This document shows, piece after piece, positions 34,886-63,150 of a stretch of DNA of 64,000 nucleotides (position 1 is its first letter; each line of letters begins with the position of its first letter). The notes below the pieces were generated by a model. That model had not been told where the DNA came from. It saw only the letters and a program-made list of their open reading frames with translations, and ran no database searches. The translations under genes and the position numbers were made by a program. Origin of the DNA: Bacteroidales bacterium (GTDB lineage: Bacteria; Bacteroidota; Bacteroidia; Bacteroidales; F082); NCBI GenBank assembly GCA_017630195.1, contig JAGBVS010000021.1:39262-103261 (forward strand), written 5' to 3'.

Positions 34886-35036
34886 TCCCTCTATTCCCTC
34901 TAATTCCTCTGTCCCTCTATTCCCTCTGCCCCTCTAATCCCTCTGTCCCTCTATTCCCTCTAATTCCTCTGCCCCTCTAATCCCTCTGTCCCTCTATTCC
35001 CTCTAATTCCTCTAATTCCTCTGTCCCTCTAATCCC
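34886..35036. repeat. Complex CT-rich tandem repeat (17 units of 7-10 nt, consensus tccctctaNt)
   Basis: Units counted by eye. There is higher-order structure: the block tccctctat-tccctctaat-tcctctg recurs 3 times, and cccctctaa-tccctctg recurs twice. Confidence 0.95.
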
Positions 35037-43904: not shown

Positions 43905-45410
43905 ATGAGTTTTTTGAGTAAGGACACCATTTGCGCAATCGCAACAGCTTCAGGAACAGCAGCAGTTTCAATGATTAGAATGTCGGGAAAGGACAGCCAT
44001 AAGATTGCACTTTCAAGATTTGTTAGAAGAAAACAATTAGCATTGCATGAAATCACTCCAAACAGAATGTATTATGGAGAATTTGCCGATACAAGTGGTA
44101 AAATCATTGATGATGTTATGATTACATTTTTCAAAGCACCACATTCATATACTGGAGAAGACTCTGTCGAGATTGTATGTCACGGCTCTATTTTCATTCA
44201 GAATAATATTTTAGAGATACTGATACAAAGCGGAGCGCGATTGGCAGAAGCCGGCGAATACACCATGAGAGCGTTTGTTAACAACAAGATGGACCTCACC
44301 CAGGCTGAAGCTGTTGCCGACCTCATCTCATCACAGAACGAAGCAGAACATCGTGTAGCGATGAACCAGCTCAAAGGCGGATTTTCCAAAGAACTTCAAG
44401 TATTGAGAAGCAAGCTGTTAGACCTCACATCATTGATGGAACTCGAACTCGACTTCAGCGAAGAAGACGTAGAATTTGCCGACCGCACAAAACTCAACAA
44501 TTTGATAGACGAAGCATCTACTCACATCAACAAACTCACTGATTCTTTTAGACTTGGCAACACCATAAAGAGAGGCACACCTGTCGCTATTGTAGGCGAC
44601 ACCAACGCAGGAAAGAGCACCCTGCTCAACGCGCTGCTCGGTGAAGAAAGAGCCATCGTCTCCGACATAGCAGGAACCACACGCGACACCATCGAAGAAA
44701 CACTGAATATCAGCGGAAAGACATTCAGGTTCATCGACACAGCAGGCATCAGAGAGACAGAAGACACCATTGAGAAAATAGGCATTGAGCGCGCTTTCAA
44801 GAAGATTTCAGAAGCCGACATTGTATTAGGTCTCCTCGACTTAAATCAAAGCTCGGACACATATTTCAAATCTGCCAACTTCATCATTGACAATGTCAAC
44901 CTATTGAAACAAAAGCTGATATTGATATTCAACAAAGTCGATTTGAACCAACAAGCCATGTGGATGGACACAGAGTATATCATTGACAACCTTCGTGTTG
45001 CCATTGAAAAAAACATAGAAGATAACGGAGGCTATATGCTTGACGAGTACAAATACAGCATCACAGGACAAGACTGCTATGATATAAGGAACCTCATCAA
45101 ATACGATTTCATTTCAGCGAAGAACGAAGAAGACATCGAGAAGTTAAAGAAAAACATAGCGTTCTTTGGCAGAGACCTGACAGTAGGCGAAAACGAGGTA
45201 TTAGTCACCAACTTACGCCATTACGAAGCCTTAATAAAGGCAGCCGAGTCGTTGGTCAAGGTAAAGGATGGATTAGATTTCGGCATCTCCACAGAGTTCG
45301 TAGCCCAGGACTTAAAGGAAGTCCTTTATTATTTAGGCAGCATTACCGGTGAGATTAGCAGTGGCGACGTGCTCAATAATATTTTTGGAAGATTCTGCAT
45401 CGGAAAGTGA
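43905..45410 (+). CDS. mnmE: tRNA uridine-5-carboxymethylaminomethyl synthesis GTPase MnmE
   Basis: The ATG at 43905 gives MSFLSKDTICAIATASGTAAVSMIRMSG. It has the G1 motif GDTNAGKSTLLNAL and the invariant C-terminal FCIGK. Confidence 0.95.
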   Translation: MSFLSKDTICAIATASGTAAVSMIRMSGKDSHKIALSRFVRRKQLALHEITPNRMYYGEFADTSGKIIDDVMITFFKAPHSYTGEDSVEIVCHGSIFIQNNILEILIQSGARLAEAGEYTMRAFVNNKMDLTQAEAVADLISSQNEAEHRVAMNQLKGGFSKELQVLRSKLLDLTSLMELELDFSEEDVEFADRTKLNNLIDEASTHINKLTDSFRLGNTIKRGTPVAIVGDTNAGKSTLLNALLGEERAIVSDIAGTTRDTIEETLNISGKTFRFIDTAGIRETEDTIEKIGIERAFKKISEADIVLGLLDLNQSSDTYFKSANFIIDNVNLLKQKLILIFNKVDLNQQAMWMDTEYIIDNLRVAIEKNIEDNGGYMLDEYKYSITGQDCYDIRNLIKYDFISAKNEEDIEKLKKNIAFFGRDLTVGENEVLVTNLRHYEALIKAAESLVKVKDGLDFGISTEFVAQDLKEVLYYLGSITGEISSGDVLNNIFGRFCIGK

Positions 45411-45411
45411 G
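45394..45411 (+). repeat. Direct repeat L (last codons plus stop of mnmE), TCTGCATCGGAAAGTGAG
   Basis: An exact 18-mer copy recurs at 52642-52659. Confidence 0.9.
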
Positions 45412-45602
45412 TTATCAATCACCCAATAGTTTTTACGTCTGTTTTTGTACCTCCTGTGTACCTCGCCGCATGAAATACGATTTTGCATTGGCAAAGTGAT
45501 GGAAAATGTCGTCAACCGAACTAGTGAGTCACACTCTCAAGTTGAATTATTCTACTTTAGCAAATTGTTATCACATAATTTTGCCGAATAAGAAAAGTGT
45601 AT

Positions 45603-45650
45603 TATATTTGCATTTCCGAAACCACCATTTCGGAAATGATTATTTCGGAA
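45603..45650 (+). promoter_or_regulatory. -7 box (TATATTTG) followed by a 10-bp inverted repeat and a third half-site (TTTCGGAA)
   Basis: The sequence reads tatatttg catttccgaaa ccacc atttcggaaatg attatttcggaa, between the promoter box and the ATPase ATG at 45666. Confidence 0.5.
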
Positions 45651-45665
45651 CTAAATAAAAAGCGT

Positions 45666-46985
45666 ATGAGATTTTTTGATAGAACAGAGGAGATTACATC
45701 ACTCAAGGAGATACTTGAACTCTCAAAGAGTAATGCACAGTTTACGGTAGTGACAGGTCGTCGTCGTATCGGTAAAACATCGCTTGTGTGGAAGGCATAC
45801 GAGGATGAGCCGATACTCTATTTCTTTGTTGCCCGTAAGGCTGAGAGTGATTTGTGTACGGATTATATTCAAGAGATTGAGAACAAGTTGGGTATCCCTA
45901 CAATGGGCAGAGCAGAGCGATTCACAGAAATCTTCGAATACCTGATAAAACTCTCTATTGAGCGTCCAATTACACTATTTATAGATGAGTTTCAAGAATT
46001 CTTCAAGGTAAACAAGTCCGTATATAGCGATATGCAACGTATATGGGATATGTATCACACTAAGGCTCATATCAACCTTATAGTGTGCGGTTCTATCTTC
46101 TCGATGATGACTAAAATTTTCAAGGACAAGAAGGAGCCGCTGTATAATCGTCAGACTCGTTTTATATCGATTAAGCCATTCACCCCTACTGTATTGAAGG
46201 AGATTATGACGGAATATAATCCTAACTACACAGCCGAAGATTTGTTAGCGTTATACTCGTTTACAGGTGGCGTAGCAAAGTATGTTCAGTTGCTCGTTGA
46301 TGCTGGAGCAACAACCAAGACAAAGATGCTTAATCACATCATCAAAGCTGACTCTGTATTCTTGGGCGAAGGCAAGGCTATACTTATCGAGGAATTTGGC
46401 AAGGACTACGGAGTCTATTTCTCTATTCTTTCTGCTATCGCTCGTGGCAAGACATTACGCTCGGAGATTGAGCAGATTGTCGGCAGGGAGATTGGTGGCT
46501 ACCTCACAAAATTGGAGAAGGAGTACGAGCTTATTACCAAAAACCAACCTATCTTCGAAAAGAGTTCTACAAAGAAAGTTCGCTATACGATTGAGGACAA
46601 CTTCTTCACCTTTTGGTTCCGTTTCATATACAAGTATAACTATATGCTTGAAATCGAGAACTATGATGCTGTAAAGACTATCATCAACCGCGACTACGAG
46701 ACTTTCAGCGGTAAGATGCTTGAACGCTATTTCAAGCTTGTACTTATGGAGAGCAAGGCGTACACCCGCATCGGCAGTTGGTGGGATAGAAAGGGCGAGA
46801 ATGAGATTGATATTGTTGCCGAGAACGAATTAAACGACGAAGCTGTATTCATCGAGGTAAAGAGAAAAGAGGAAAGCTTTGATTCTATCGCTCTTAATGA
46901 GAAAGTGGATGTATTTACTAGAGCTACAGGCAAGTTTAAGGATTACACTGTATCGCAAAAAGGCTTGTCAATGACCGATATGTAA
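45666..46985 (+). CDS. AAA-type ATPase with C-terminal DUF234 (archaeal-ATPase-like, nuclease-fold tail)
   Basis: FFDRTEE...VTGRRRIGKTSL (Walker A), LFIDEFQ (Walker B), and a C-terminal EIDIVAE...VFIEVKR PD-ExK-like motif. The start is chosen at ATG 45666; the track start is 45597. Confidence 0.8.
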   Translation: MRFFDRTEEITSLKEILELSKSNAQFTVVTGRRRIGKTSLVWKAYEDEPILYFFVARKAESDLCTDYIQEIENKLGIPTMGRAERFTEIFEYLIKLSIERPITLFIDEFQEFFKVNKSVYSDMQRIWDMYHTKAHINLIVCGSIFSMMTKIFKDKKEPLYNRQTRFISIKPFTPTVLKEIMTEYNPNYTAEDLLALYSFTGGVAKYVQLLVDAGATTKTKMLNHIIKADSVFLGEGKAILIEEFGKDYGVYFSILSAIARGKTLRSEIEQIVGREIGGYLTKLEKEYELITKNQPIFEKSSTKKVRYTIEDNFFTFWFRFIYKYNYMLEIENYDAVKTIINRDYETFSGKMLERYFKLVLMESKAYTRIGSWWDRKGENEIDIVAENELNDEAVFIEVKRKEESFDSIALNEKVDVFTRATGKFKDYTVSQKGLSMTDM

Positions 46986-47551
46986 TATATTATGGAAGTT
47001 GTTAATTATTACATCTATCCTCTCGCTCCGAACTTAGGCAATGGTTTGAAGAGAACCACAACAAAGAGAAATGTTGTTGGGTAGTAACTTATCGCGGGAA
47101 ATGCCCAGAGTGGATTTTGAAGATAGAAGACTGATGACTGAGGCAAATGAACACGGATGGCATTTATGGATATGAATGTAATTTAGGGTTAAAATCCTTG
47201 ATGCTTTTTAGTAAAGTAAGATTCAATTTGGTGGATTTTGTATTAACTACTTATAAATAAAGCCCATATTCTAATCTACTAATATATACAACTGGATGAC
47301 ATTGACTGCATTAAAGATGATGTAGCATAAATCCACATTGTCATATTCACCACAAATCTCTTTTCTCACGCTCTCCGCGATTTGGAAATCTCAACCATCA
47401 AGCTCAAGATGCCGCACATCGAATCCGAGTACAGGTTAAAGTTGGTTGGGGTGATTAGGTGAATACAATCTTAATTTGTATCAAAAATTAAAGATGCAAC
47501 ATATCTAAACATTTATACTTTTCTTAAAAAAAGTGGCAAGGTTGATCAAAT

Positions 47552-47582
47552 AATAAAAAGAGGACAAGGTTTTCTTGTCCTC
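47552..47582 (-). terminator. Rho-independent terminator attached to the tRNA fragment
   Basis: On the minus strand, gaggacaag aaaac cttgtcctc forms a perfect 9-bp stem followed by tttttatt. Confidence 0.7.
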
Positions 47583-47589
47583 AAATATG

Positions 47590-47620
47590 TAGGCGGCAAG
47601 GGAATCGAACCCTCATGGCG
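47590..47620 (-). other. tRNA 3'-end fragment (T-arm plus acceptor 3' strand only)
   Basis: The minus strand reads ...gagggttcgattcccttgccgccta. This is a canonical GGTTCGATTCC T-loop and acceptor strand, but no D-arm or anticodon arm can be folded upstream. Confidence 0.7.
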
Positions 47621-48149
47621 AAAATATTGATTTCAAAGTAAGCTTTTACCGCGCATTTTCTTCGAGCATTAACCACCTATTCCGCCAAATGCCCACCACT
47701 TTAAGAAATTACCTAATGCTGTCATATTATTCAGGGTTTGATTAAAATTAAAAAAAGTAATACATCCAAGTACAAACTGGTAATAAGTTGGTAAAGGACA
47801 CCCGAATAAATGAGCGGATATTAAACATACTCCTACGTTCAATCAAATCCGATGCGAATATAGGGAAAACTTTTCAAACAAACTCCTTAATGTTCACTTT
47901 TTATCATCACACATTCCACATTCTACGAAAATCAGCACTTTATCTCACCATAATCCAAAAGTTATTTTGCAGTTATATTCTGATGGATGGTTTCACCATA
48001 ATAACACCGATTTCCTTTGCCATCAAATAGCAACCTACATCGCATTTGACAAGCCACCACAGGCAGTGTATTATCTGACAGAACAGACTCATTACGAGTC
48101 TCTTATTATTTATTTACACAAAATATAGATGGTGTAATTATATATTTAT

Positions 48150-49508
48150 TCAATACAACTTGTCGTCTCTATTAATCTCAAATATAGGATCATATGAAGG
48201 TCGATATTCAACACTATATTTACCATTTATCCCTAGAATAGGTATTTTATAATGTGCAGCTCGTTCTTGAGTGTCATTTGAATCATATTCCACCCATTCT
48301 TGAACATATATATATTCGTACTTTTTAAAGTGTTCAAAATTGGAGATAATATTTGTGATCGTCAAATTAAATTCAGAATCGTAATCACTATATGGCAAAA
48401 TATAAATAAATATTGAATCGAAAATATACAAGACTGCGGTACAGTACGGAGAAAACGCTGGAGACTTTTCTGTTTTAAAGAAAAGATCCAATACTGGTTG
48501 TTCAAAAAAGAATGTATATTGTTCCCCATATAAGAAAGGAGGCAAATCATTGCTCTCAAAATCACCGTGAACCCACTCCCCAGTGCGAACAAAATGACTC
48601 ATCTTATCAGATGGTATCATATCAACTGCAAATTTAACAAGAGCCTTGTAAATCCCCTGATACGAAACAGGCCCATTATTGTAAAGATGAATTTTTCCAG
48701 TTAATTTACCTTGATATAAATCATTAAATATATGCTCTTGTTTTACATATACTGCAGGCTGTTTAGTTACAGGATCGGGATGAATATGAAAATTGAGCCC
48801 TTCTTGATTATGAATTGCAGATTGCTTGCCTTTTATCTGCGAAAGATTGCGATTGATCTCAAGGAACCGAAATAAAGGTGTCTCAACATTATTTGAAAAT
48901 AAATTATTACAAATATCACATTCTTCATAAGCAAACAAAAGATGATTCCCCAAGCTCTCTTGTAACGCATGAGAAATACTTTTATATCGCTCAGCACCAG
49001 TACCTTTACAAAATCTACATATACGTTTTGACTTATCTTTCTCGCCTACATAAACCTTGTCTGTCAAAAAGCCAAAAGAGAATGTATCATAAGATAAATA
49101 AAGTCTACCCCAATTCTGCACAAAAACATTATCTGCTTTTCTAACATCTATTCCTAAAGTGCGAGATTCTGTTTCAAGAACAGACCGTTTTAAGTCCATG
49201 AGAGAAACATTTGTTCTCTGACGAATGAAATAATCCCCATCCTCAAATCCTTTAAAATAAACAGGTAATTGCTGAACGTTAGGGTATTTATCCTTGTATT
49301 TATCAGACAATTTTTGCATTACTTCAATAATCTGCGAATAGTAACAATAAACAGCATGAATGTTTCCTCCCTGAATAGCTTTTATACTATCAAATACTTG
49401 ATCTATTTCTTTTGCAACCCCATGATCTGCCGTTGAAAAATCTATTAGAGTTCTTTTCTTAGGAGACAAAAGATAGAACTTCTGAGGTTGTATGTCAAAA
49501 ATATCCAT
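48150..49508 (-). CDS. Uncharacterised 452-aa protein with a central HNH/zinc-ribbon nuclease motif
   Basis: CRFCKGTGAERYKSISHALQESLGNHLLFAYEECDICNNLF matches the CxxC...H...N...CxxCN layout of HNH (HNH_5-like) nucleases. The flanking N- and C-terminal domains were not recognised. Confidence 0.6.
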   Translation of the reverse strand: MDIFDIQPQKFYLLSPKKRTLIDFSTADHGVAKEIDQVFDSIKAIQGGNIHAVYCYYSQIIEVMQKLSDKYKDKYPNVQQLPVYFKGFEDGDYFIRQRTNVSLMDLKRSVLETESRTLGIDVRKADNVFVQNWGRLYLSYDTFSFGFLTDKVYVGEKDKSKRICRFCKGTGAERYKSISHALQESLGNHLLFAYEECDICNNLFSNNVETPLFRFLEINRNLSQIKGKQSAIHNQEGLNFHIHPDPVTKQPAVYVKQEHIFNDLYQGKLTGKIHLYNNGPVSYQGIYKALVKFAVDMIPSDKMSHFVRTGEWVHGDFESNDLPPFLYGEQYTFFFEQPVLDLFFKTEKSPAFSPYCTAVLYIFDSIFIYILPYSDYDSEFNLTITNIISNFEHFKKYEYIYVQEWVEYDSNDTQERAAHYKIPILGINGKYSVEYRPSYDPIFEINRDDKLY

Positions 49509-49550
49509 ATAATACAGAATTAATGTATATAATCTTATTGTAATGATGTT

Positions 49551-50441
49551 TTATGATTTGGGTATATCTTCCAATTTAATCAGTCTTAACCTGTTTTTTA
49601 GACTCCAGTGTTCCAAAATAAATCCATCTATTCTTTTTTTATCTGTACTAGAAAAATAACTTACTTCCCATTGAGATGTAGCGGGAACATTATTAAAAAA
49701 CCAATCCATATAATCTTCATCTACTGATGAAAATGAAAAACCATATATATGCACACACTCTAAATCTTTGAGAATCTCTTTTAATTCTTGATGTTTGTAA
49801 ATATGTTCGTATGGATTCTTATGATATTTACTTAATTCAAAAGATACTTGCTCCTCGTCATTGCTCATTGAATTTCCCTGAAGAAACGCATCGTGTCCAT
49901 ATATCAGACGTTCGTGTTTTGAAGATTGACCATGAATATGAAGAACTCGTTCTTCTGGTATTTTATACAACCCCTCAAGTACATCCGTATAATTAAAATT
50001 AATGAAAAATGAATCTTCTATTTCCAAATTGATGTACTTTGGGTTGGTTATTAAACTTTGACAACTTTCCACCCATTTTCCAAAACAGTATTGTAATATA
50101 TCAAGTAAACCTCTCAGACGTCTTGCGCAAGGTACATCAGGGTGCAAATTTGGAGGTAAATTATATTTTTCTTCGAAATTCTTTCTCCTTTTTATTTCTG
50201 ATAGAATTTCATCTTTAGATTTTTCTTGTGGCGTAAACTTCTTTATGTATTTCTTTATGTCTAATTTACCAAGTTGCACTTCAAAATCATTCCACCATTC
50301 AACATCCATATCATAGGTAGCCTGCATATTCTCGAAGATGAATGGATAATTATTTTCCAGCCACAAACGAAAATCCACATATCGTGTACGAAGTCCAGTA
50401 TGAATATCAAACCCGTTACCAATTATGTATAGATGCTTCAT
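49551..50441 (-). CDS. AbiH-family abortive infection protein homologue
   Basis: MKHLYIIGNGFDIHTGLRTRYVDF, FINFNYTDVLEGLY, VLHIHG and HIYGFSFSSVDEDY match the AbiH family pattern. Confidence 0.8.
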   Translation of the reverse strand: MKHLYIIGNGFDIHTGLRTRYVDFRLWLENNYPFIFENMQATYDMDVEWWNDFEVQLGKLDIKKYIKKFTPQEKSKDEILSEIKRRKNFEEKYNLPPNLHPDVPCARRLRGLLDILQYCFGKWVESCQSLITNPKYINLEIEDSFFINFNYTDVLEGLYKIPEERVLHIHGQSSKHERLIYGHDAFLQGNSMSNDEEQVSFELSKYHKNPYEHIYKHQELKEILKDLECVHIYGFSFSSVDEDYMDWFFNNVPATSQWEVSYFSSTDKKRIDGFILEHWSLKNRLRLIKLEDIPKS

Positions 50442-50538
50442 AGTGTTAATTAAATAAAATTAAAAACTATTCTTATTTTATGGATTACATATGAAATAAA
50501 GGAAGGTCTTATTACAATGACATAATACAGAATAAAGG

Positions 50539-51366
50539 TTAATTCAACCTCACCATCCCCGCCAACTGAACAAAATAATCATTCGACCAGATATCCAACT
50601 CCTTTGGATTGCGCACAAAAGGAAGTACATCCTCTTTTACTTGCTTTATATCAGCTGTAGAAAGGCGTTCTTTCAGCTTCTCCTTGAATTGTTCTAGAGT
50701 AATATCTTCGTCATTAAACTGCTTGCATCTTTCAGCCAAATGTACAAAATCCAGGGGCACATTATGGCGTACATACCATTCAAAGTCGTACCAATCGCGT
50801 CCCTTTACTCGGTTTTTCCACGCGCGATATACCAGGGCGTGCATCTTGCCGGCAAACAGATCGGATAGAGTGAAGCAACGAGTCATGAATGAATGAGGCT
50901 GCAACAACAGTTTTTGCTCAGTCTTAAAATTAAGTGGAGGACAAGTATCAACCTCTATCTTGATTTTAATAGATTTCTCTGTTTGAAACATAACATCATA
51001 GACATCGGTATTGTCCTTTAGAAAGGCAGACTCAACCTTGCCGAAATTCTTCTTATCCTTCTTCTTGATTTCTACTTCTCGTCCAACTATAGCAAACGTA
51101 TCAATTATAGGTTGGAAATATTTGCTGAAATCAAATGCATCATCCTGTGCTAGCAGAGAAAAGTCCATATCTTCACTAAAGCGTTGCAACCCATGAAAGA
51201 TTCTCAAACAAGTACCGCCATAGAATGCTGCAGATTCAAAAAATCCACCACTATACAAACCTGCAAGAATCACCTGTTGGTTTACTTCAAAAATAGCGTT
51301 TCGCTTATTCTGCTCTGTCATCAGATCATATCGTGACAACATGCTATCGTAAATTTCATTCTTCAT
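50539..51366 (-). CDS. abiEii: AbiEii/AbiGii-family nucleotidyltransferase toxin (type IV TA)
   Basis: 275 aa. GGTCLRIFHGLQRFSEDMDF is the typical NTase motif (GG..L....R.S.DlDf). The start overlaps the abiEi stop by 4 nt. Confidence 0.85.
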   Translation of the reverse strand: MKNEIYDSMLSRYDLMTEQNKRNAIFEVNQQVILAGLYSGGFFESAAFYGGTCLRIFHGLQRFSEDMDFSLLAQDDAFDFSKYFQPIIDTFAIVGREVEIKKKDKKNFGKVESAFLKDNTDVYDVMFQTEKSIKIKIEVDTCPPLNFKTEQKLLLQPHSFMTRCFTLSDLFAGKMHALVYRAWKNRVKGRDWYDFEWYVRHNVPLDFVHLAERCKQFNDEDITLEQFKEKLKERLSTADIKQVKEDVLPFVRNPKELDIWSNDYFVQLAGMVRLN

Positions 51367-51989
51367 CGTCTTAGAAACTTTAATACGGTTGCAATAGAAT
51401 CGACCTTCTTACCGACCTTTATATACTCTTCAAAAATATTAACGTCAAAATTATAGAATTCATCCATATCCATTCGGATATCATGTTCAAGATAGTTTTC
51501 AACATCCTTCATAAAACGCAGATTTACCTTGGATGAATTTGCTATCAGGTCGCACAAAGCCTTTTCGGGCGATGCTATCAAGAAAGCATATTCGCCCTTA
51601 TGAATACTTCTTACTCCAACAGAGAAAGCAGCTCGGGAAATATACTTGTAATCGTAATTACCAATAGGAGTCTGAAAACTTCGTGAATGCTTTATCGTCA
51701 TAGACTGATGTGTATACACAGCCTCTGGAATTAATCCATAATATCTTAATGCTGTTGACATAGAGATATATGAAGGAGCATAAAGATGATTGGCTATCAA
51801 TTCATTTGAAAGTGTCTTTCCGGAATGTTCAGGATTGACAACATAGAGCCCCCTCTTCAATCTTATGATATATCCGTTCTTCTCGAGCCAAACAACCTTC
51901 TTATCTGCAGACTTGAGCTCAGGATATAGCGATTCGATGACTGAAGTCGTTACTGGGATAGCTCCTATTTCCTTTAATTGTCTATTCAT
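51363..51989 (-). CDS. abiEi: AbiEi-family antitoxin (type IV TA)
   Basis: 208 aa with an N-terminal winged-helix region (LEKNGYIIRLKRGLYV), located directly upstream of abiEii. Confidence 0.8.
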   Translation of the reverse strand: MNRQLKEIGAIPVTTSVIESLYPELKSADKKVVWLEKNGYIIRLKRGLYVVNPEHSGKTLSNELIANHLYAPSYISMSTALRYYGLIPEAVYTHQSMTIKHSRSFQTPIGNYDYKYISRAAFSVGVRSIHKGEYAFLIASPEKALCDLIANSSKVNLRFMKDVENYLEHDIRMDMDEFYNFDVNIFEEYIKVGKKVDSIATVLKFLRR

Positions 51990-52061
51990 GTCGCAAATAT
52001 AGTAATATTTTGAATAATAAAAGAAGTATTTCTTCCTTTTCTGTTCAAATATTATCTATAT

Positions 52062-52141
52062 TCACATTTTCCCGACGAAAAAGAGCCTCCTTTTCACATT
52101 ATCCCATATTGTTCTAGTTGTAAAAATCACATTTTCCCCGA
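52062..52141. promoter_or_regulatory. Three direct repeats TCACATT(T/A)TCCC upstream of abiEi (candidate operator)
   Basis: The copies begin at 52062, 52093 and 52127, spaced 31 and 34 nt apart, 73-150 nt upstream of the abiEi ATG. Confidence 0.4.
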
Positions 52142-52641
52142 ATTTAATCCTTGCTGGGCAAAAGAAAAATTCAAAGACTTCTCTTCTTTTGAGAAGCAAA
52201 AAGGGTATGTTTTGGCACTTATAAAAAACACCTTCTAAAAGATAGACGGATATAAAGAAACACATAACATCTGCAAATGAGAGGAGCAAAGTGCATTTTA
52301 TAAGAGTGTAAAGCCACTGCTATGACAGACCTCTTAAATTTGGTGATAAAGGCAGTTTAGTTTACTCCTATTCTATATATACATTGGACTAAACTAAACC
52401 ACAAAATTAATAGCAATCGGAGGTGCAATTTCTGCTCCAATTAAAGGCAATTTTACCATGCAACGAAATGCAAATATGCTAAAAATTCTAAAAAGAGTGC
52501 GTTTTTGCAGATTTTATGGGTTTCTTTGCAAAAATGCAGTCCCCTGTCTGTCCCCCGAATAATTTTTTGTCCTTCGGTAAAACTTTGCAATATATTATGT
52601 ATAAAGTAATTATAAAGTTCTAGATAGGCGTTAAAAAAAAC

Positions 52642-52659
52642 TCTGCATCGGAAAGTGAG
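52642..52659 (+). repeat. Direct repeat R: orphan copy of the mnmE 3' end (reads LCIGK-stop)
   Basis: Exact 18-mer match to 45394-45411, with no mnmE-like sequence upstream of it. Confidence 0.9.
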
Positions 52660-52668
52660 AGATATCTT

Positions 52669-52676
52669 TATCTTTG
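52669..52676 (+). promoter_or_regulatory. -7 promoter box (TATCTTTG) for the phosphatidyltransferase gene
   Basis: TAnnTTTG match 17 nt upstream of the ATG at 52693. Confidence 0.55.
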
Positions 52677-52692
52677 CTCAATAAATTGAGTG

Positions 52693-53199
52693 ATGAGAAA
52701 ACAGATAGCGAACATAATTACAGCAAGCAGAATTTTAAGCAGTATTTGTCTATTGCTCAGTCCTGTTTTTTCCATTAGCTTTTACATCATATACATATAT
52801 TGTGGAATTACGGATATGGCAGACGGAGCAATTGCAAGGAGAACAAAATCCGACAGTGAATTGGGAGCAATATTAGACACAGTTGCCGACATTGTATTTG
52901 CAGCAGTGTGTTTTGTAAAGATACTGCCATCAATGCAATTTCCTGTTTGGTTATGGATTTGGATTGTCATTATAGCCATCATTAAAATAGGCAATTTTGT
53001 TTGGGTTTTGATTTGCAACAAAAAGCTGATATCCCTACATACCATTTTGAATAAAGCCACAGGATTTTTATTATTTCTTTTCCCCTTAACACTCGGTTTT
53101 ATTGAACCCGTCTATAGCTCTGCAGCAGTATGTCTCATGGCGACATTGTCGGCAATCGATGAGATGTGGCATATAAGGATGAGAAAAGAAGGTGTTTAG
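52693..53199 (+). CDS. CDP-alcohol phosphatidyltransferase family protein (small, PgsA-like)
   Basis: The signature D-x2-DG-x2-AR-x8-G-x3-D-x3-D is present as TDMADGAIARRTKSDSELGAILDTVAD. It is a polytopic membrane protein. Confidence 0.85.
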   Translation: MRKQIANIITASRILSSICLLLSPVFSISFYIIYIYCGITDMADGAIARRTKSDSELGAILDTVADIVFAAVCFVKILPSMQFPVWLWIWIVIIAIIKIGNFVWVLICNKKLISLHTILNKATGFLLFLFPLTLGFIEPVYSSAAVCLMATLSAIDEMWHIRMRKEGV

Positions 53200-53271
53200 T
53201 TAAAAAAGTATAAAAGTTTTTTTATCTTTTTCTTCTTTATATTGCATAATAATTCCTATTTTTGTAAGGAA

Positions 53272-53489
53272 ATGGTAAATTACAAAAAAGGATGGATAAA
53301 CCTCGAACTGCACAAAATAAGTGCTTGAGAACGTGGCATCAAACAGACTTGGCTTGCTGAACGGCTTGGCAAGAGTTTCTGTATAGTAAACTCCTACGTT
53401 TGTAATCGACGCCAACCGAGTTTAGATGTGCTATTTGAGATAGCAAATATATTAATGTAGATACAAAATATTTGATAGCAAATAAATAA
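53272..53489 (+). pseudogene. Disrupted XRE-family HTH regulator (possible former controller of the R-M operon)
   Basis: Frame from ATG 53272: MVNYKKGWINLELHKISA-TGA-ERGIKQTWLAERLGKSFCIVNSYVCNRRQPSLDVLFEIANILM-stop. The HTH core is intact, but there is an in-frame TGA at 53326-53328. The expected C-terminus (NVDTKYLIANK) is readable only after a +1 shift. A TATTTTTG box lies at 53257-53264. Confidence 0.55.
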
Positions 53490-53507
53490 AGAAACATAAT
53501 AATTAAA

Positions 53508-54533
53508 ATGGTTAATACTTTTAATATAAGTAATAGGCGTTATTTAGGAAATAAATATAAGCTCCTTGATTGGATAAAGAGTATTGTTAATGAAAACTGT
53601 ACTAATGTTCAATCGTTCTTTGATGTATTTTCTGGAACAGGTAGTGTCGCCTCTGCATTTATTGATAAAAAATTAGTGGTATGCGACTTGATGAAAAGTA
53701 ATTATTATGCTGCTTTATGTTGGTTCTCTCCTGAAAATATCGATAGAGATAAATTAGCTAGGCTTATCGAAGAATATAACGCACTCGACACAGCACTTGA
53801 AGATAATTATATGTCTCAAAACTTTTCGGAGACATATTTCGACAAGAAGACATGCCAAAAGATTGGGTATATCAGAGATGATATAGAGAAGAAACTTATG
53901 GATGGCATTGTCAATAAAAGAGAGCATGCCTGTATTATCACCTCATTGTTTTATGCAATGGATAGAATTAGCCATACATGCGGTCATTATGATTCATTTA
54001 TACGAGATGGTAGGTACGAAGGATTCTTGGAACTCAGAATGCCAGATAATGACTATCCTCTGAATGATAATAATCATATCTATTGTGCAAATAGCAATGA
54101 TATAGCTGAATTGGAAGATGTTGATATTGCATATTTGGATCCTCCTTATAATAGTCGCCAATATTGCGATGCATATCATTTGCTGGAGAATGTTGCACTT
54201 TGGACTAAACCTGAGGTATATGGCATTGCAAGAAAGATGGATCGCACTAATATGAAGAGTAAATACTGTAAAAGTATACAAGCTGCCATTGCTCTTGAAG
54301 ATCTTGTTCGAAAATTGAGATGTAGATATATCCTATTTAGTTATAATAACAACGGGAAGAAATTACAATGCAGAAGTAATGCAAAACTAACAGACGAAGA
54401 AATCATAAGAATCCTTTCCATAAGGGGAGATGTGCAAGTTTTCACTACTGAATACAAAGGCTTCGAAGCTGGATATGAAGCCAAGAACAAAGACAACCAA
54501 GAAAGACTCTTTTTATGCAGCGTAAACAAATAA
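53508..54533 (+). CDS. D12-class N6-adenine DNA methyltransferase (M1 of a type IIS system)
   Basis: RRYLGNKYKLLDWI, motif I FDVFSGTGSV, motif IV AYLDPPYNSRQY. Confidence 0.85.
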   Translation: MVNTFNISNRRYLGNKYKLLDWIKSIVNENCTNVQSFFDVFSGTGSVASAFIDKKLVVCDLMKSNYYAALCWFSPENIDRDKLARLIEEYNALDTALEDNYMSQNFSETYFDKKTCQKIGYIRDDIEKKLMDGIVNKREHACIITSLFYAMDRISHTCGHYDSFIRDGRYEGFLELRMPDNDYPLNDNNHIYCANSNDIAELEDVDIAYLDPPYNSRQYCDAYHLLENVALWTKPEVYGIARKMDRTNMKSKYCKSIQAAIALEDLVRKLRCRYILFSYNNNGKKLQCRSNAKLTDEEIIRILSIRGDVQVFTTEYKGFEAGYEAKNKDNQERLFLCSVNK

Positions 54534-55444
54534 AGAATTATATATCATCGCCATTGAATTATATCGGAGGTAAGGCTCGTATTTTAGATCAGATACTCCC
54601 CCATATGCCTTCGGATATAGATATTTTTGTTGATTTATTTTGTGGCGGATGCAATGTGGGTATGAATGTATCTGCAGATTATACTATTTATAATGATATA
54701 TCGAAGCCACTTATAAGTTTGCTAAAGGCATTTAAAAGAATGAATAACGAGACAATAATAAATAGGATCAACGCTCTCATTAATGAATTCGGTCTCAGTA
54801 AAACACGTAATCATAACTTTAAATTTTATGGTGGCGATGCTAATAAGGGAGTTTCTGCTTATAACAGAGAAAAATTTCTCTTGTTAAGAGAACGTTTTAA
54901 CTCTCATCCCAAGAAAGATAATCAATACTATATTTTATTGTATACATTGATATTATTTGGATTTAATAACCAATTAAGATTTAACGATAAAGGGGAGTTT
55001 AATCTTCCTGTTGGCAAACGAGATTTTAATACCGCAATCGAAGCAAAACTTGTTAAGTTTTTAGACGCACTTCGCATGCAGCCACATGAATTTCAGACGA
55101 AGGATTTTAGAAAATTTAATTTTGCCGATTTAACAGAGAATAGTCTTGTTTATTGCGATCCTCCGTATCTGATTACAACAGCAACATATAATGAGAAGGA
55201 TGGGTGGACGGAACAAGATGAACGAGACCTTTTCGCCATACTTGATAAACTCACAGAAAAGAGAATTAGATTCGTTCTAAGCAATGTTCTCCATCATGAA
55301 GGGAAAGAGAATTCATTACTTATAGAATGGATAGGTCAGCATAATTACAGAGTTCATAATCTGTTTATGGACTATCATTACAGTAATTATCAAAAGAAAT
55401 CAAAGAAAGCAGAATCGCAAGAGGTCTTAATAACAAATTACTAA
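54515..55444 (+). CDS. Dam-like D12-class N6-adenine DNA methyltransferase (M2)
   Basis: LNYIGGKARIL, FVDLFCGGCNVG, VYCDPPYL. The start overlaps M1 by 19 nt. Confidence 0.85.
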   Translation: MQRKQIKNYISSPLNYIGGKARILDQILPHMPSDIDIFVDLFCGGCNVGMNVSADYTIYNDISKPLISLLKAFKRMNNETIINRINALINEFGLSKTRNHNFKFYGGDANKGVSAYNREKFLLLRERFNSHPKKDNQYYILLYTLILFGFNNQLRFNDKGEFNLPVGKRDFNTAIEAKLVKFLDALRMQPHEFQTKDFRKFNFADLTENSLVYCDPPYLITTATYNEKDGWTEQDERDLFAILDKLTEKRIRFVLSNVLHHEGKENSLLIEWIGQHNYRVHNLFMDYHYSNYQKKSKKAESQEVLITNY

Positions 55445-55445
55445 C

Positions 55446-57548
55446 ATGGCTGAGTACAACAAGTTTATAGGGAAATACGAAAGAATTCCATATAGTTCGT
55501 TTGTTTGGAAATTTGGTACAACATCCTTTCGAACCCGAGAGTTTAATAGAATGACCGAATGGCAACTCCAATTACTGGATGACTTTTGGAAGAAACCAGA
55601 AAATAAAGATCAAGGTTGGGAGAAAAAATATATAGCTACTGATCAATTAGATATCTACGAAATAAAGAATAGATATTATGATTGGCTTGTTGAAAATGGT
55701 TTCACAAGAGGTGATGATAAGGTAAAGTATAAAGCTGCTCGAGAAAAAACGAGTGGATTATATGATATGGGGCTTATTAATGAAAACCATCGTCTTACAG
55801 ATGTTGGTCATAATTTATTGCAACTATCTGCCGATGGTGAGGCTTTTTTAAGAAAAACCCCATTAAACATATCTGAAGACTCTTTTCTATACCTCAAGCA
55901 ACTTCTGAAATTGAGTTCAAATGACACTGGTAATACAGTGCGCCCATTCATTGTCGTTTTGTATTTATTGTCTAAACTAGACTATTTAACTTATGAAGAG
56001 TTTAGATATCTAATGCCACTATGTACATCTTCATTCAATACTGAATATATTTTGAATTGTATTCAGGAAAATAGGGATAAAGCAAGTGGAATCGACAATA
56101 TAATTATTGACTTTTTGCTGAATAAAAGTAATTATCAAGAAGGACTTAAACGATTCATTGAAGAACCATTCTCAGAAGAATTGCTACTATCTGTTGGAAT
56201 GAACAGAAAAAGTGCCGATTATGATCGAGCATACATTCCTGTTTATCAAGAAATGTATGCTGTTTATATGTTAAATGATTCTTCGCGAATATATCCACTT
56301 TTCTTATCACTTAATAAATTGTCTACATCTATTAAGTGGAAGACAATAATGTTCAATACCAGCCTTAAAGCAGCAGTAAAAAAAGATCCAGAAGGTAGCC
56401 TAATACCGTTGCCTGCTATTATTACGCAATCAGAAGTGTCCTTCAAGGAGTTCTTCTATTTGACCATGCATCTAAATAAGGCAAAATCGATGCTTGAAGA
56501 TTATCTTGATCTGAATAGACGTTATTTAGGATTAACAAACTGCTTCATCTTTGAAGATGATCAAGTACGGCTGGATATCGTACCCAAACACTTTTTTAAT
56601 GCCGCAATCAATGAATTGTATAATCAAGCTTACGAGGAGTGTGATCTGTTGTTTGCAGATTGCACTATAGATAGTATTTGCCCTGCATTAACTTTTGATG
56701 AAAAACAAATTATCGATGGTATCAACAAAGAATTAGGAATCCATATAGATAGTATCGAAGAGGCTTACGATGAAGTTGACAAAGTTAGATACGACCGTTT
56801 TAATAAGTTAATTGACGAAAAATTTTCGGACGAAAAACTTTTAAAATTACTTAATAACTTTGACAATAGGACTGATTCTGAGATTTGTCAGATGGTGACT
56901 GATAATGCCGATATTCCTACAATATTTGAATATATACTTGGTATAATATGGTATAAAGTTAGTGGAAGAGAAGGCAAGATTCTCGACTATTTAAAATTAT
57001 CTCTTGATGCGAATCTATTACCTATAACCCACGCTGCTGGAGGGGAAGCTGATATTGTCTATGAGTATAAAGAAACAACAGATTATCCAAAACATAGTTT
57101 ACTGTTAGAAGCGACTCTTGCAGATAGTACCAATCAGCGCAGAATGGAAATGGAGCCAGTTTCAAGACATCTTGGCAATCATCTATTGAGGACTGGTAAC
57201 AGAAATAGCTATTGTGTATTTGCAACTAGTTATTTGCATATCAATGTAATTGGAGATTTCCGTATGAGAAAAATGGTAATGTATTGTGATCCACAGGATA
57301 CAAGTAAATATGTCTCGGATTTGAAAATTATGCCACTTTGCACCAATGATTTAAGATGTATTATTGAAAAGAAGATTTCATATGCTCAATTATATAAACA
57401 TTTTTGTATAGCATATGAATCTCAAGAAATGCATCCTCAGAAATGGTACGATGAATATGTCTGCATAGAGAACTCTAATCTATTCTATAATTTTGAAGAC
57501 CACCCCATGTGTATGGTTGCAGATGTAAAGGTAAAATATAATGAATAG
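55446..57548 (+). CDS. Type IIS restriction endonuclease, AlwI/BstNBI/PleI/MlyI family
   Basis: LLPITHAAGGEADIVYEY ... LLLEATLADSTNQRRMEMEPVSRH closely parallels, from memory, the catalytic region of N.BstNBI (LQPVTHAAGNQPDMEIIYE ... GEVTTSKGATQFKMESEPVTRH). The gene starts 2 nt after the M2 stop. Confidence 0.8.
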   Translation: MAEYNKFIGKYERIPYSSFVWKFGTTSFRTREFNRMTEWQLQLLDDFWKKPENKDQGWEKKYIATDQLDIYEIKNRYYDWLVENGFTRGDDKVKYKAAREKTSGLYDMGLINENHRLTDVGHNLLQLSADGEAFLRKTPLNISEDSFLYLKQLLKLSSNDTGNTVRPFIVVLYLLSKLDYLTYEEFRYLMPLCTSSFNTEYILNCIQENRDKASGIDNIIIDFLLNKSNYQEGLKRFIEEPFSEELLLSVGMNRKSADYDRAYIPVYQEMYAVYMLNDSSRIYPLFLSLNKLSTSIKWKTIMFNTSLKAAVKKDPEGSLIPLPAIITQSEVSFKEFFYLTMHLNKAKSMLEDYLDLNRRYLGLTNCFIFEDDQVRLDIVPKHFFNAAINELYNQAYEECDLLFADCTIDSICPALTFDEKQIIDGINKELGIHIDSIEEAYDEVDKVRYDRFNKLIDEKFSDEKLLKLLNNFDNRTDSEICQMVTDNADIPTIFEYILGIIWYKVSGREGKILDYLKLSLDANLLPITHAAGGEADIVYEYKETTDYPKHSLLLEATLADSTNQRRMEMEPVSRHLGNHLLRTGNRNSYCVFATSYLHINVIGDFRMRKMVMYCDPQDTSKYVSDLKIMPLCTNDLRCIIEKKISYAQLYKHFCIAYESQEMHPQKWYDEYVCIENSNLFYNFEDHPMCMVADVKVKYNE

Positions 57549-57569
57549 GAATGTTTTTTCAATATAAAC

Positions 57570-58520
57570 ATGAGTAGAATAGAAACTGCTATAAATAATC
57601 TCCTAAACCAGACAAATGGAGTTATCAATTCTCGCATTGAGGAAGTGCGATACTCTGTTGATGTACCTGAAACTAATGCAAAAGGGTATTGCTATTGCTT
57701 GAAGGTAGATGGTAATGGGAATCTAAGACTTCAAGATTTGATAGAGTATATTGATACAAGGATTGTTGATTATGCAATCCCTAAAAAAGAAATTGATGAG
57801 GCTGGAGATGATTATAATAGAACGGGGTCTACTCGTAAAATATTAGAATTACAAAAGAAGGCAGAGAATCTTTTTACAGATTTGAAGAAGACTGGCGAAG
57901 GAGGAGAAATACTATTATATATCCTTACGCAAGATATTCTTAAATTACCTCAGCTTATAAGCAAGATGTCGTTAAAAACTTCAGGTAAGTTACATTATCA
58001 AGGAGCTGATGGCATTCATTTTAAATACAATGAGACAACAAAAAATCTTGAGCTGTATTGGGCAGAGTCAAAGATGTATAAAGACTTAAATACGGCAATA
58101 ACAAGATGCTTTGAGAGTATAAAAGGGTTCTTGCTTGACCCACAAAGTTATACTTCAACACAAGAACGAGATATTGATTTAATAACCTCAAATATCCATC
58201 AAAATATAAATAATGAAGAATTAGAAAATGTTCTTCTGACATTCTTTGACAAGGATAGCGAGCTGTCTAATAATTTAGTATATAAAGGTATTTGCTTTAT
58301 AGGTTTTGATTATGATAAATATCCAACAAAGGACGATATAACAAAGACCACCAATGATATAAAGAATGCAATACTTGCTGAATATGATAATTGGCATAAT
58401 ACTCTAGGTGAAAAAATCAAAATGCATATCAACCTAGATAAGAAAGAAATACATATATTTTTAATGCCATTCCCTTCGGTAGAAGACTTTAGAAAACATT
58501 ACCTCGAAACAATAAAATAA
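57570..58520 (+). CDS. hamA: Hachiman HamA (DUF1837 nuclease-like protein)
   Basis: HYQGADGIHF...LYWAESKMY (D...ExK core of DUF1837); 316 aa, located directly upstream of a helicase with a TAATG overlap. Confidence 0.8.
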   Translation: MSRIETAINNLLNQTNGVINSRIEEVRYSVDVPETNAKGYCYCLKVDGNGNLRLQDLIEYIDTRIVDYAIPKKEIDEAGDDYNRTGSTRKILELQKKAENLFTDLKKTGEGGEILLYILTQDILKLPQLISKMSLKTSGKLHYQGADGIHFKYNETTKNLELYWAESKMYKDLNTAITRCFESIKGFLLDPQSYTSTQERDIDLITSNIHQNINNEELENVLLTFFDKDSELSNNLVYKGICFIGFDYDKYPTKDDITKTTNDIKNAILAEYDNWHNTLGEKIKMHINLDKKEIHIFLMPFPSVEDFRKHYLETIK

Positions 58521-61030: not shown

Positions 61031-61084
61031 TTACTATTATAAAGCACCTTTAGCATGCAACTTATAAAATTATAATGAATACAA

Positions 61085-62866
61085 ATGATAGAATTAACAG
61101 ATTTAAAATTTAATACATGTGCTTATTTTTATAAGATAAAAGAAGGATGTTTGATTACAGACAATGAAATCAAACAAATGTTAATTGAAGTTACTTCCAC
61201 AAAAATAAGAAAATATCTATTTGATATATGTCGAGTAGAAAACAATGGAGTTAAGTATTCTCTTCGAATATTCAAGGACAAACCTAAAATGCCTGGATTT
61301 ATTGCTATTGAGGACAATAATTGGAAAGAACAAAAGATTGGTTACTATTTGTTTATAGAATATTCTAATCATGTTGCGATATTTAAAAAAAACTGTATAA
61401 TTCCCAAAGATATTTCATCAAAATTTGAAAGCATTAATTACAACAAATTAATTAATCTATATACTGACAACAACACAGAGTTTAAAAAAATAAACATGCA
61501 GAATCTAGATGGTTCTGATCATGCAATGCGTTTCAAATCATATGGAGCACTTAACTTAAAGGAAAATATTTCTCCAATAGGTGCTAGTCGTTACTATATC
61601 AGATCTCTAAAAGGTAATAACGGAAATGATCATTTTGCTCTGACATTGAATACATCTAAAATACATGATTTTAAAGACATCTATACTTTGGATGAAATAT
61701 GCAAATGGGTAAAAGCAACTATTGATAAATTGAATGATAATAATATCGTTGCTTCAGATTTTCTCAATATCTTTGCTAAACCTGTAAAATATGAGGATAT
61801 ATATAATAATCTTCAGCCAACTTCTCTTCTGTTATTTACCGATTTAATAATGTTGCTAATAGATAAAGGTGCTAAATTTTCTTATTGTGATAAAAACAAA
61901 ATAATAAGTAATAAAGTGCTTTGTAGAGGATTAAGCATGGTACAACGTTGTTTCGAATCCGTAAATCGAGAAGATAAGGACGGTAAGATTTATTATTATA
62001 CGGGGCATAATAACTGTATTGAAATTAAATTACTTAAATCAGGCATCAAACTCATAAATTCAAAATGGGATAATATATCAATTAGTGAAACACCTGATGA
62101 AGAGTACGATGGAACGTTGTTAGATTTAATAAATAAAAATTCATTATTTAATCTTTATTTTACAGATACAGAATTAATATATAATAATCGCGTTTTATTC
62201 AGAGATACAAAGTTGTTGAGCAGCGCATATCATTTCCTTGATATATTAAAAGTTAGAATGAACGGAGAATTTTTATATGAAAAGCATAAAAAAAGTTCTC
62301 CTCGAGACTTAGAAAATTGGCACGAGCATAGTATTTTTAAATATGTAGAATCAACTTTTATGCCCGAGTATAGATATTTCATATGTGATGATTGTGGAAT
62401 AGAATGGGCTGATCACATTGGAATATCAGAAAATAGAATCACATTTTTCATTGAAAAGCATAAAACATCGCTGGATTCGGCATCGGATTTTCAAGATGTC
62501 GTTGGACAAGCTTTAAAAAATATAGCTAACCTTATGCCTTCAAAAAATCAATTAGATGAGAAACGAGAACTATGGAATATGAACTACTTAACATCGAATA
62601 TTCCAAGATTTAGGTCTAGAGAAGGTAATGTTAATGATGCTATTAATGAATGGTTAAAGAATAATCAAAGACCTAATTGTCAACGAGAGATATGTCTGGT
62701 TGTAGACTTTATAGAAAAGGAAAGATTTAAAAACCAACTCGAATCACTTATGAATGAGCAAGAAATTGATCATGAAGCAGAATTGAGAATGAGACTTTGG
62801 CTATTATCTTCATTTGTAAATACATGTCTGGAATATGGAGTTACTCCATTGATTTATTGTCGTTAG
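61085..62866 (+). CDS. Uncharacterised 593-aa protein (candidate defence component)
   Basis: Clean ORF 55 nt downstream of hamB on the same strand with the same low GC. The only motif seen is FICDDCGIEWADHIGISENRITFFIEKHKTSLDSASDFQ, which loosely resembles the PD-(D/E)xK core. The overall layout vaguely recalls the sporadically distributed TIGR04141/DUF6119 family, but this is unverified. Confidence 0.5.
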   Translation: MIELTDLKFNTCAYFYKIKEGCLITDNEIKQMLIEVTSTKIRKYLFDICRVENNGVKYSLRIFKDKPKMPGFIAIEDNNWKEQKIGYYLFIEYSNHVAIFKKNCIIPKDISSKFESINYNKLINLYTDNNTEFKKINMQNLDGSDHAMRFKSYGALNLKENISPIGASRYYIRSLKGNNGNDHFALTLNTSKIHDFKDIYTLDEICKWVKATIDKLNDNNIVASDFLNIFAKPVKYEDIYNNLQPTSLLLFTDLIMLLIDKGAKFSYCDKNKIISNKVLCRGLSMVQRCFESVNREDKDGKIYYYTGHNNCIEIKLLKSGIKLINSKWDNISISETPDEEYDGTLLDLINKNSLFNLYFTDTELIYNNRVLFRDTKLLSSAYHFLDILKVRMNGEFLYEKHKKSSPRDLENWHEHSIFKYVESTFMPEYRYFICDDCGIEWADHIGISENRITFFIEKHKTSLDSASDFQDVVGQALKNIANLMPSKNQLDEKRELWNMNYLTSNIPRFRSREGNVNDAINEWLKNNQRPNCQREICLVVDFIEKERFKNQLESLMNEQEIDHEAELRMRLWLLSSFVNTCLEYGVTPLIYCR

Positions 62867-63150
62867 ATTTATGCTTAATTAGGGAACGATATACATGTTT
62901 ACACCAAACTATAATTTTAAATGGCATCATCCATAATTTTGAGGTAGGTTTATCGTGAATAAAAATAGTTACTGCTTCATAATATAAACAAAAGAACTCC
63001 ACTAATTTCAATGGAATTCAATATGTTTTAGGTTCATTTAAATTTTGAATAAAATCTTGATTTTGTGTAAACATACTATACCCCTACTCTATCTCTCTAT
63101 TTAAAACGATGTGTGATGAGTGGCATGGTGCAAAAGACAGAATCTTCCTC

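Follow-up and report, generated by a model that had tools for sequence, protein, structure and literature searches.

Mobile elements that enter the 3' end of a gene by means of a tyrosine recombinase carry an attachment site (attP) that mimics the gene end, an arrangement which leaves the gene intact and an identical short core at both junctions (PMC2297512, PMC5704250). The island SGI1 integrates at the last 18 bp of thdF/trmE, i.e. mnmE (PMC2297512), and within the SGI1 family of Gammaproteobacteria, including MGIVchHai6, insertion restores the gene end and creates 18-bp direct repeats (DR-L and DR-R), and tandem arrays occur, while SGI1 also carries a toxin-antitoxin system for its maintenance (PMC2297512, PMC5704250, PMC5006074). 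The elements NBU1, NBU2, MTnPi4 and Tn6031 target the 3' ends of tRNA genes (PMC5704250). After decay, an element devoid of integration genes remains between the left and right attachment sites (attL and attR) as a cis-mobilizable element (CIME); CIMEs were defined for relatives of ICESt1/ICESt3 in streptococci, and the underlying model of integration, decay and accretion is established (PMC5704250). The subject of the present analysis is a 7.2-kb block directly downstream of mnmE in a 64-kb stretch of a Bacteroidales contig (JAGBVS010000021.1; the whole stretch is referred to as the window), which is bounded by two copies of an 18-mer. These copies are most probably the attL and attR cores of an integration at the mnmE 3' end by a tyrosine recombinase, after which the block decayed.

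The features that define the locus are the following; loci used for comparison are denoted by L and a number.

43905..45410, plus strand: mnmE, tRNA modification GTPase, 501 aa (Pfam TrmE_N, MnmE_helical, MMR_HSR1; translation)
45394..45411, plus strand: left direct repeat (probable attL core), TCTGCATCGGAAAGTGAG; homology to the sister-lineage loci L178/L179 ends at 45408, inside the repeat
52642..52659, plus strand: right direct repeat (probable attR core), identical to the left one; homology to the relatives L169-L177 and L179 resumes at 52669, 10 nt rightward
52669..53199, plus strand: conserved right flank, consisting of a TATCTTTG box and a CDP-alcohol phosphatidyltransferase (CDP-OH) gene (Pfam; homologues in relatives)

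An earlier reading of the letters alone, referred to as the sequence-only reading, had claimed a pair of exact 18-mers, the first encoding the MnmE C-terminus and the second lacking a gene in front of it, and all of this is borne out. The window contains exactly these two copies of TCTGCATCGGAAAGTGAG. Copy 1 starts at the second base of a Phe codon, passes through CIGK to the TGA stop and extends by one more base, and these last codons of mnmE, FCIGK and stop, are the attachment site. Upstream of copy 2, identity breaks off at the edge of the 18-mer (3/5 preceding bases match), and mnmE-like sequence was not found there. A third copy is absent from the window even if 2 mismatches are allowed, with 0.01 matches expected from shuffles; frequent occurrence of the 18-mer elsewhere, which the sequence-only reading had named as grounds for rejecting its proposal, is therefore not observed within the window. 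Its estimate that any exact 18-mer pair would arise by chance in a few percent of cases was too low, given that 8/60 Markov-simulated 64-kb sequences (~13%) contain some such pair, while the chance that this particular 50%-GC 18-mer recurs is far smaller (~1e-6, calculated from base composition). Only one other dispersed exact repeat of at least 18 nt is present in the window, with a length of 52 nt (17244/34626). The simulated frequency of pairs is the one point in favour of regarding the repeat as a coincidence, or as a local duplication unrelated to mobile elements. Against this stand the rarity of this very 18-mer, its position at both homology breakpoints and, as set out below, the same gene-end duplication in six other Bacteroidota loci and the occurrence of the core next to integrases in phage attP sites, by which this reading is effectively refuted and hardly deserves credence.

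The limits of the block are defined by comparison with relatives, among which the sister lineages possess an MnmE 90-98% identical to that of the window. In the sister lineages L178 and L179 (MnmE 98% and 96%), DNA identity amounts to 95.2% and 95.7%, respectively, over 11.5 kb upstream, and homology to the window stops at 45408, within the first copy of the 18-mer. It is regained at 52669 in L179 and in L169-L177, the latter having been found via the CDP-OH protein. The limits of the block coincide with these two breakpoints, and it is a discrete unit. Moreover, alleles of variable content between fixed flanks, set beforehand as a test, were found in L178, L179, L263/L169 and L180. In L178, an intact integrase of 378 aa lies 148 bp past mnmE and is followed by a repressor, an SbcC-like protein, RecT and a DnaD-like loader, a succession that identifies this allele as a prophage. 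L179 carries cargo unrelated to that of the window, L263 together with L169 reveals 12.5 kb of SMODS/SLATT, RloB/AAA_15, kinase and Fic genes, and in L180 a DUF234 gene is followed by FRG, DUF2971 and DUF5700 genes. The allele of L002 (MnmE 90% identical) possesses a frameshifted tyrosine integrase that starts 227 bp past the mnmE stop. The segment 45411-47144 is 94.5% identical in L180/L182/L184 (MnmE 93%; 92.7% identity overall) and the content differs afterwards; since the left 1.7 kb is common to the L180 lineage, where other cargo follows, the block is a mosaic and old.

The origin of the block is indicated by three remnants of a mobilizable element:

45412..45509, plus strand: left-arm relic of an NBU-like mobilizable element
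47331..47494, plus strand: pseudogene relic, comprising the C-terminal 38 codons of an element gene (L155 open reading frame 14913-15680) and the DNA that follows
47955..48086, plus strand: relic of the upstream region and the first ~16 codons of an HTH_17 (excisionase-like) gene

Positions 45430-45509 are 78-89% identical to the DNA just past mnmE, and ahead of an HTH_17 gene and an integrase, in L155 and L038. They include a pair of directly repeated GTACCTC motifs (45447-45453 and 45458-45464), which may represent arm-type integrase sites. The stretch 47331-47444 encodes the last 38 residues of the L155 gene (tblastn E = 4e-8; blastn 71% over 149 nt of 47331-47494). The third relic is 84% identical over 69 nt to L155 17338-17405, also matches L117, L020 and L217, and by tblastn exhibits 81% identity to HTH_17 residues 6-21. 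The three relics (45430-45509, 47331-47494, 47955-48086) stand in the order of L155, while the integrase, primase and mobilization genes situated between and beyond these points in L155 are absent from the block, where the DUF234 ATPase and the HNH/AbiH/AbiE genes stand instead. Hence, the set that characterizes NBU-like elements of the L155 type, namely an integrase of their own, an HTH_17 gene, a primase and mobilization genes, is not present, and the block is a relic rather than a functional member of this group. Neither tblastn nor Pfam detected an integrase in the block or anywhere in the 64-kb window, in agreement with the earlier claim that no recombinase lies between the repeats. That claim had been accompanied by three options, i.e. 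a decayed element, one mobilised in trans, or a unit of a tandem array, among which decay has the strongest support, given the remnants of a mobilizable element of the integrase-bearing kind within the block.

The use of the mnmE end is by no means confined to this genome. A survey by tblastn with the L002 integrase, which comprises the domains Arm-DNA-bind_5, Phage_int_SAM_5 and Phage_integrase, covered 80 GTDB species loci and 80 metagenome loci. A tyrosine integrase of this architecture (Arm-DNA-bind_5/SAM_5/Phage_integrase) lies 150-1900 bp downstream of mnmE on the same strand in 36/160 independent loci (~22%), that is in 17/80 GTDB species loci, including Bacteroides, Parabacteroides, Flavobacterium, Myroides, Draconibacterium and Labilibacter, and in 19/80 metagenome loci, while almost no integrases are found upstream of mnmE. 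One of the 36 loci belongs to a sister lineage with ~95% DNA identity, whose intact prophage occupies exactly this site. A scan of IMG/VR for TTCTGCATCGGAAAGT yielded 75 loci, 32 of which feature an integrase of this type ~220 bp downstream; 27 of these 32 are devoid of mnmE upstream and thus display the attP arrangement. One contig with such an attP measures 47,624 bp and is circular, as follows from its 77-bp terminal overlap, and the integrase of the viral locus L216 is 97% identical to that of the L002 prophage. Consequently, the proposed family of mnmE-targeting elements in Bacteroidota exists. At least two kinds of elements use the site: temperate phages, whose integrase is located 150-260 bp past the stop codon (e.g. 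L178), and NBU-like integrative mobilizable elements, for which L155 exhibits the gene order HTH_17x2, Int, two unknown genes, HTH_17, DUF3987, DUF6371 and MobC. In searches of the open-access literature no paper was found that describes attachment at mnmE/trmE in Bacteroidota, the relevant ones all dealing with the SGI1 type. In Bacteroidota, phages and mobilizable elements commonly use the mnmE end, a precisely delimited attachment site that is convergent with that of SGI1.

Two further arrangements were observed at this site. Tandem mnmE-end-like cores, offset by 19-21 nt, occur in L179:11480-11520, in L032:11368-11412 and in the viral loci L186, L188, L190, L201, L211, L218, L219 and L248, one core being of the GTG (Val) and the other of the ATC (Ile) type, e.g. 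TTTTGCATCGGGAAGTAG-A-TTTTGCGTGGGAAAGTGA; the viral ones lack mnmE upstream. A simple exchange between attP and the chromosomal site (attB) should leave one core per junction, whereas the double core may belong to the way in which attP is built in one phage group. In L217:1-6500 (IMGVR_UViG_2904829168_000003), an L155-type fragment (HTH_17, DUF3987 and a shortened DUF6371-like open reading frame) ends in an FCIGK-stop core (5110-5132), directly after which a phage-type integrase follows. Here, two distinct elements that target mnmE seem to have accreted, with a deletion.

Duplicated gene ends comparable to those of the window were found in L036, L042, L050, L056, L063 and L075, where a second copy of the C-I/V-G-K-stop pattern lies 1.9-7 kb downstream of mnmE on the same strand; in shuffled sequence this pattern gives 4 matches in 2.27 Mb, both strands included. 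Some of the second copies differ synonymously from the resident gene end, as is the case for DR-L and DR-R of SGI1, and no integrase is situated between mnmE and the second copy in any of the six. In L050 (11371-13527) and L056 (11440-13340), which belong to Flavobacteriales and Bacteroidales hosts, only an AbiEi/AbiEii pair lies between the copies, and the viral locus L246 contains an AbiEii fragment ~70 nt from the core. At the mnmE site, AbiE modules seem to be what usually persists to the end, or what rides along.

These small blocks bear on the idea that the block of the window is a working hitchhiker without an integrase, which incoming mnmE-targeting integrases would excise and move in trans, or in cis after accretion. 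Both of its cores have remained intact and identical, integrases for the mnmE site are intact in sister lineages, ~2-kb blocks in which mnmE-end repeats enclose nothing but AbiEi/AbiEii are found in two unrelated hosts (L050, L056), a viral contig holds an AbiEii fragment beside the core, and cis-mobilization of CIMEs is documented in streptococci (PMC5704250). On the other hand, no circular junction was found in viral contigs, the block is fixed in all conspecific contigs, and its arm regions are degraded or heterogeneous, with GTACCTC repeats on the left and GTCCCC repeats on the right. Moreover, the AbiE pairs found in the window, in L050 and in L056 are no more than distant relatives (25% identity) with differing orientations, for which reason independent survival of addiction modules fits better than one mobile cassette. 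A block that is still moved in this way is therefore considered improbable. Equally slender is the prospect that integrase-less defence cassettes bounded by mnmE ends form a functional class of minimal hitchhikers spread by the integrases of mnmE-targeting phages and elements; if true, the mnmE site would bear some resemblance to an integron platform serving anti-phage genes throughout Bacteroidota.

In the favoured explanation, which is integration at the mnmE 3' end followed by decay, the attP of the element would have carried a mimic of the last codons of mnmE, FCIGK and stop. Integration would have left mnmE intact, while the displaced copy of the gene end would have landed at the far junction; a tyrosine integrase presumably made both junctions, and both cores would stem from a single event. 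In the presumed order of decay, the integrase, excisionase, primase and mobilization genes would have been lost later through deletion and replacement, leaving the left arm, the two gene relics, both att cores and the anti-phage cargo (PDC-S27/DUF234 ATPase, HNH-like protein, AbiH, AbiEi/Eii) in a block that would at present be unable to move alone. The block sits in an integration hotspot between mnmE and the CDP-alcohol transferase gene, and all that integration at a gene 3' end predicts at the sequence level is found in the window. On this model, the prophages of L178 (JAZRIZ010000044.1) and L002 (JAZRNQ010000170.1) would end with a second TTCTGCATCGG(A/G)AAGT.

Several observations weigh against this explanation. 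Empty sites, in which mnmE is directly followed by the sequence from 52660 onward, were seen in 0/12 contigs examined, all being occupied, and one metagenome and one viral scan likewise revealed none. A complete chromosomal element bearing an integrase and both repeats was not found within the 10-kb flanks. There is no sign of recent mobility, since all conspecific contigs, originating from five samples (ERZ28653854, ERZ27256951, ERZ27256944, ERZ28653948, ERZ28654368), carry the block. Relatives feature no recognisable mnmE-end copy at the same position of their right junction, the interpretation of arm sites relies on short motifs, and the two cores may derive from different integration events. 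As to the scans, the exact attR junction gave 0 matches in the metagenome_contigs collection, where the closest relative reaches only 62% MnmE identity, the collections scanned hardly containing this species. Likewise, the predicted empty site GGAAGAT-TCTGCATCGGAAAGTGAG-AGATATCTTTATC and the predicted circular junction GTTAAAAAAAAC-TCTGCATCGGAAAGTGAG-TTATCAATCACC each gave 0 matches in viral contigs. A separate observation concerns the metagenome contigs L261, L264, L265 and L183 of this genus, which stop 22-58 nt past the mnmE stop codon; such ends are as expected if the strains in a sample differ there and the assembly graph branches.

The right flank provides the evidence on a further reading. 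As had been claimed, a promoter box and an unrelated gene follow copy 2: TATCTTTG is a promoter-like box of the form TAnnTTTG at 52669-52676, and the CDP-OH gene occupies 52693-53199 (ATG at 52693, 168 aa). Its homologues in relatives are 91-93% identical with different cargo on both sides, while in L179 it has shrunk to a 122-bp relic. Beside the mnmE of more distant Bacteroidota it was found in 0/80 genome loci, and the frame formed by mnmE and CDP-OH is thus specific to this genus. To the right, a second variable defence region extends over 53200-63150 and comprises two D12 methyltransferases, an RE_AlwI endonuclease, Hachiman (HamA/HamB) and PDC-S71; between CDP-OH and the YgjP-like/lipase/ADH genes, relatives instead harbour GmrSD, or Dcm/HATPase/Z1/SLFN helicase, or DUF2357/PDDEXK_7. 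The CDP-OH gene is therefore placed between two hotspots, and the DNA beyond copy 2 is not simply core, although the gene itself is conserved. With PDC-S27, AbiH and AbiE inside the block and restriction-modification, Hachiman and PDC-S71 beyond it, the locus is also a defence island.

This second region raises the question of whether a tandem array, built by successive integrations at the mnmE site, reaches from mnmE to beyond 63 kb, with copy 2 of the 18-mer marking one of its internal junctions; the window would then end before the oldest attR and perhaps before an integrase. Such an array would agree with the region after the CDP-OH gene, which is likewise defence cargo that varies among relatives, with the tandem accretion documented for SGI1 and mobilizable elements (PMC2297512, PMC5704250), and with L217 and L246, which resemble arrays with internal cores. 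It is contradicted by the lack of a third 18-mer with 2 mismatches allowed, or of any further FCIGK-stop pattern, in the window, by the lack of any integrase there, and by the CDP-OH gene with its promoter, a fixed anchor (91-93%) with variable DNA on both sides that is more reminiscent of two neighbouring hotspots. An array is thus rated as unlikely. Both the array and the hitchhiking block are refinements of integration and decay at the mnmE end and not true alternatives to it.

Apart from the relics, the block contains the following genes and a short RNA-like stretch:

45597..46985, plus strand: DUF234/ATPase_2 protein, PADLOC candidate defence family PDC-S27 (Pfam, PADLOC)
47585..47625, minus strand: fragment resembling a tRNA/tmRNA 3' end (T-arm and acceptor strand), followed by a hairpin (read from sequence)
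48150..49508, minus strand: HNH-like protein of 452 aa, presumably cargo (weak HNH_5, Pfam E = 7.5e-5, under the curated cut-off)
49551..50441, minus strand: AbiH abortive-infection protein (Pfam 2.2e-41; PADLOC AbiH)
50539..51989, minus strand: AbiEii toxin (50539-51366) and AbiEi antitoxin (51363-51989) (PADLOC AbiEii 3e-115, AbiEi 1e-74; Pfam)

Pfam and PADLOC confirm the gene content proposed by the sequence-only reading, with a weak match in the case of the HNH-like protein, for which PADLOC gives no match and which corresponds to PHROG 26663 (annotated function unknown). The tRNA fragment that had also been proposed fared less well: a T-arm-like stretch is visible, but the Rfam match at 47599-47613(-) is weak and covers 15 nt (E = 0.34), and ARAGORN finds no tRNA at 47585-47625. 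The fragment may be the att scar of another element. Base composition was rejected as a sign of foreign origin: G+C amounts to 42% in mnmE, 29-31% in its neighbours and 36.5% in the window, and mnmE is equally G+C-rich in L001-L003, so that this is a property of the gene.

Two groups of short motifs precede the right repeat:

52061..52141, plus strand: three direct copies of TCACATT(T/A)TCCC
52539..52559, plus strand: doublet GTCCCC-N5-GTCCCCCGAA, resembling the TGTCCCCC clusters between mnmE and the integrase in one class of phage elements

Copies of TCACATT(T/A)TCCC are also situated upstream of the CDP-OH gene in L170-L177 and L179, despite differing cargo to their left, and could be protein-binding sites at the element end or a regulatory region. 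The doublet matches L112 at 18/21 bases, a marginal score reached by 2/300 shuffles. Clusters of the TGTCCCCC repeat occur in L001, L032, L044, L112, L118, L120, L164 and L179; homology of the right end of the window to such arms (L179, L001, L032, L112) is restricted to short marginal matches and was not counted as evidence. A decayed mnmE-end copy at the right junction of relatives (CCTTGTATTTCCTGGCGAATTGC) was considered and rejected, since only 8/19 bases match. The 125-bp right segment of the relatives and positions 52106-52668 of the window share similarity only in a TCACATTTTCCC motif, and 27/500 shuffles reach this score. Elsewhere in the window, two repeats unrelated to that of mnmE were noted, i.e. 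the exact dispersed 52-nt repeat (17244-17295/34626-34677), which L178-L180 share, and TCCCTCT-rich units arrayed in tandem at 34886-35030, near 34.9 kb.

While the block itself is an ordinary decayed element, the site is of broader relevance. A review of mobilizable elements from 2017 gives only tRNA genes as targets for elements of Bacteroidetes (PMC5704250). The present results pinpoint the FCIGK-stop codons of mnmE as the exact sequence at which integration is very common in Bacteroidota, and show that a second phylum with a different integrase lineage converged on the same 18 bp as SGI1 in Gammaproteobacteria. A simple rule is thereby obtained for delimiting prophages, mobilizable elements and defence islands in Bacteroidales genomes from gut and rumen, and integrases with a known and conserved attB come into view. 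Such integrases might serve as integration tools beside the vectors based on NBU2.

Compared with the known systems, the locus shares with SGI1 and MGIVchHai6 the use of the last 18 bp of mnmE, the FCIGK-stop codons and the 18-bp direct repeats, which substantiates the suggested SGI1-like geometry at the very same codons (PMC2297512). In contrast to SGI1, no integrase or excisionase is located next to the mnmE end in the window, and the integrases of relatives are, by domain architecture, of the Arm-DNA-bind_5/Phage_int_SAM_5 type. A search of every large open reading frame of the block with Pfam and PADLOC revealed only the DUF234 ATPase, the HNH-like protein, AbiH and AbiE, and neither Int/Xis nor replication functions, mpsAB/oriT, sgaCD, mobilization genes or homologues of TraN/G/H. 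Furthermore, the phylum differs, and the elements of Bacteroidota are phages and NBU-like elements, unlike the IncC-dependent islands of the SGI1 type. Since no SGI1 backbone is present and the integrases belong to the Bacteroidota Arm-DNA-bind_5/SAM_5 type, the use of mnmE is convergent, one of the two possibilities suggested at the outset, and the block resembles an SGI1-style insertion without being a member of the SGI1 family.

A likeness also exists to dusA-specific integrases, which are reported to be a dedicated clade associated with prophages and islands at one conserved housekeeping gene in many genomes (PMC4482086). The dusA elements of Proteobacteria occupy the 5' end of their gene; the mnmE integrases equally target a conserved tRNA-modification gene, at its 3' end and in Bacteroidota. 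With NBU1 and NBU2, the L155-type relatives share the tyrosine integrase, HTH_17 proteins, a DUF3987/primase module and MobC, and differ from them by targeting mnmE, the copy in the window being devoid of integrase, primase and mobilization gene.

Finally, the likeness to CIMEs is manifold: the block is bounded by attL and attR cores which also occur in phage attP sites and next to integrases, it lacks integration and transfer genes, it derives from an integrative element by decay, as the ordered L155-type relics indicate, and it occupies an accretion-prone site at a gene 3' end (PMC5704250). Unlike the streptococcal CIMEs, it is a mosaic whose ends may come from different elements, and its cargo consists of anti-phage defence. 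Taken together, the closest category for the block is that of a CIME, with an NBU-like element as its source and with cis-mobilization being putative.

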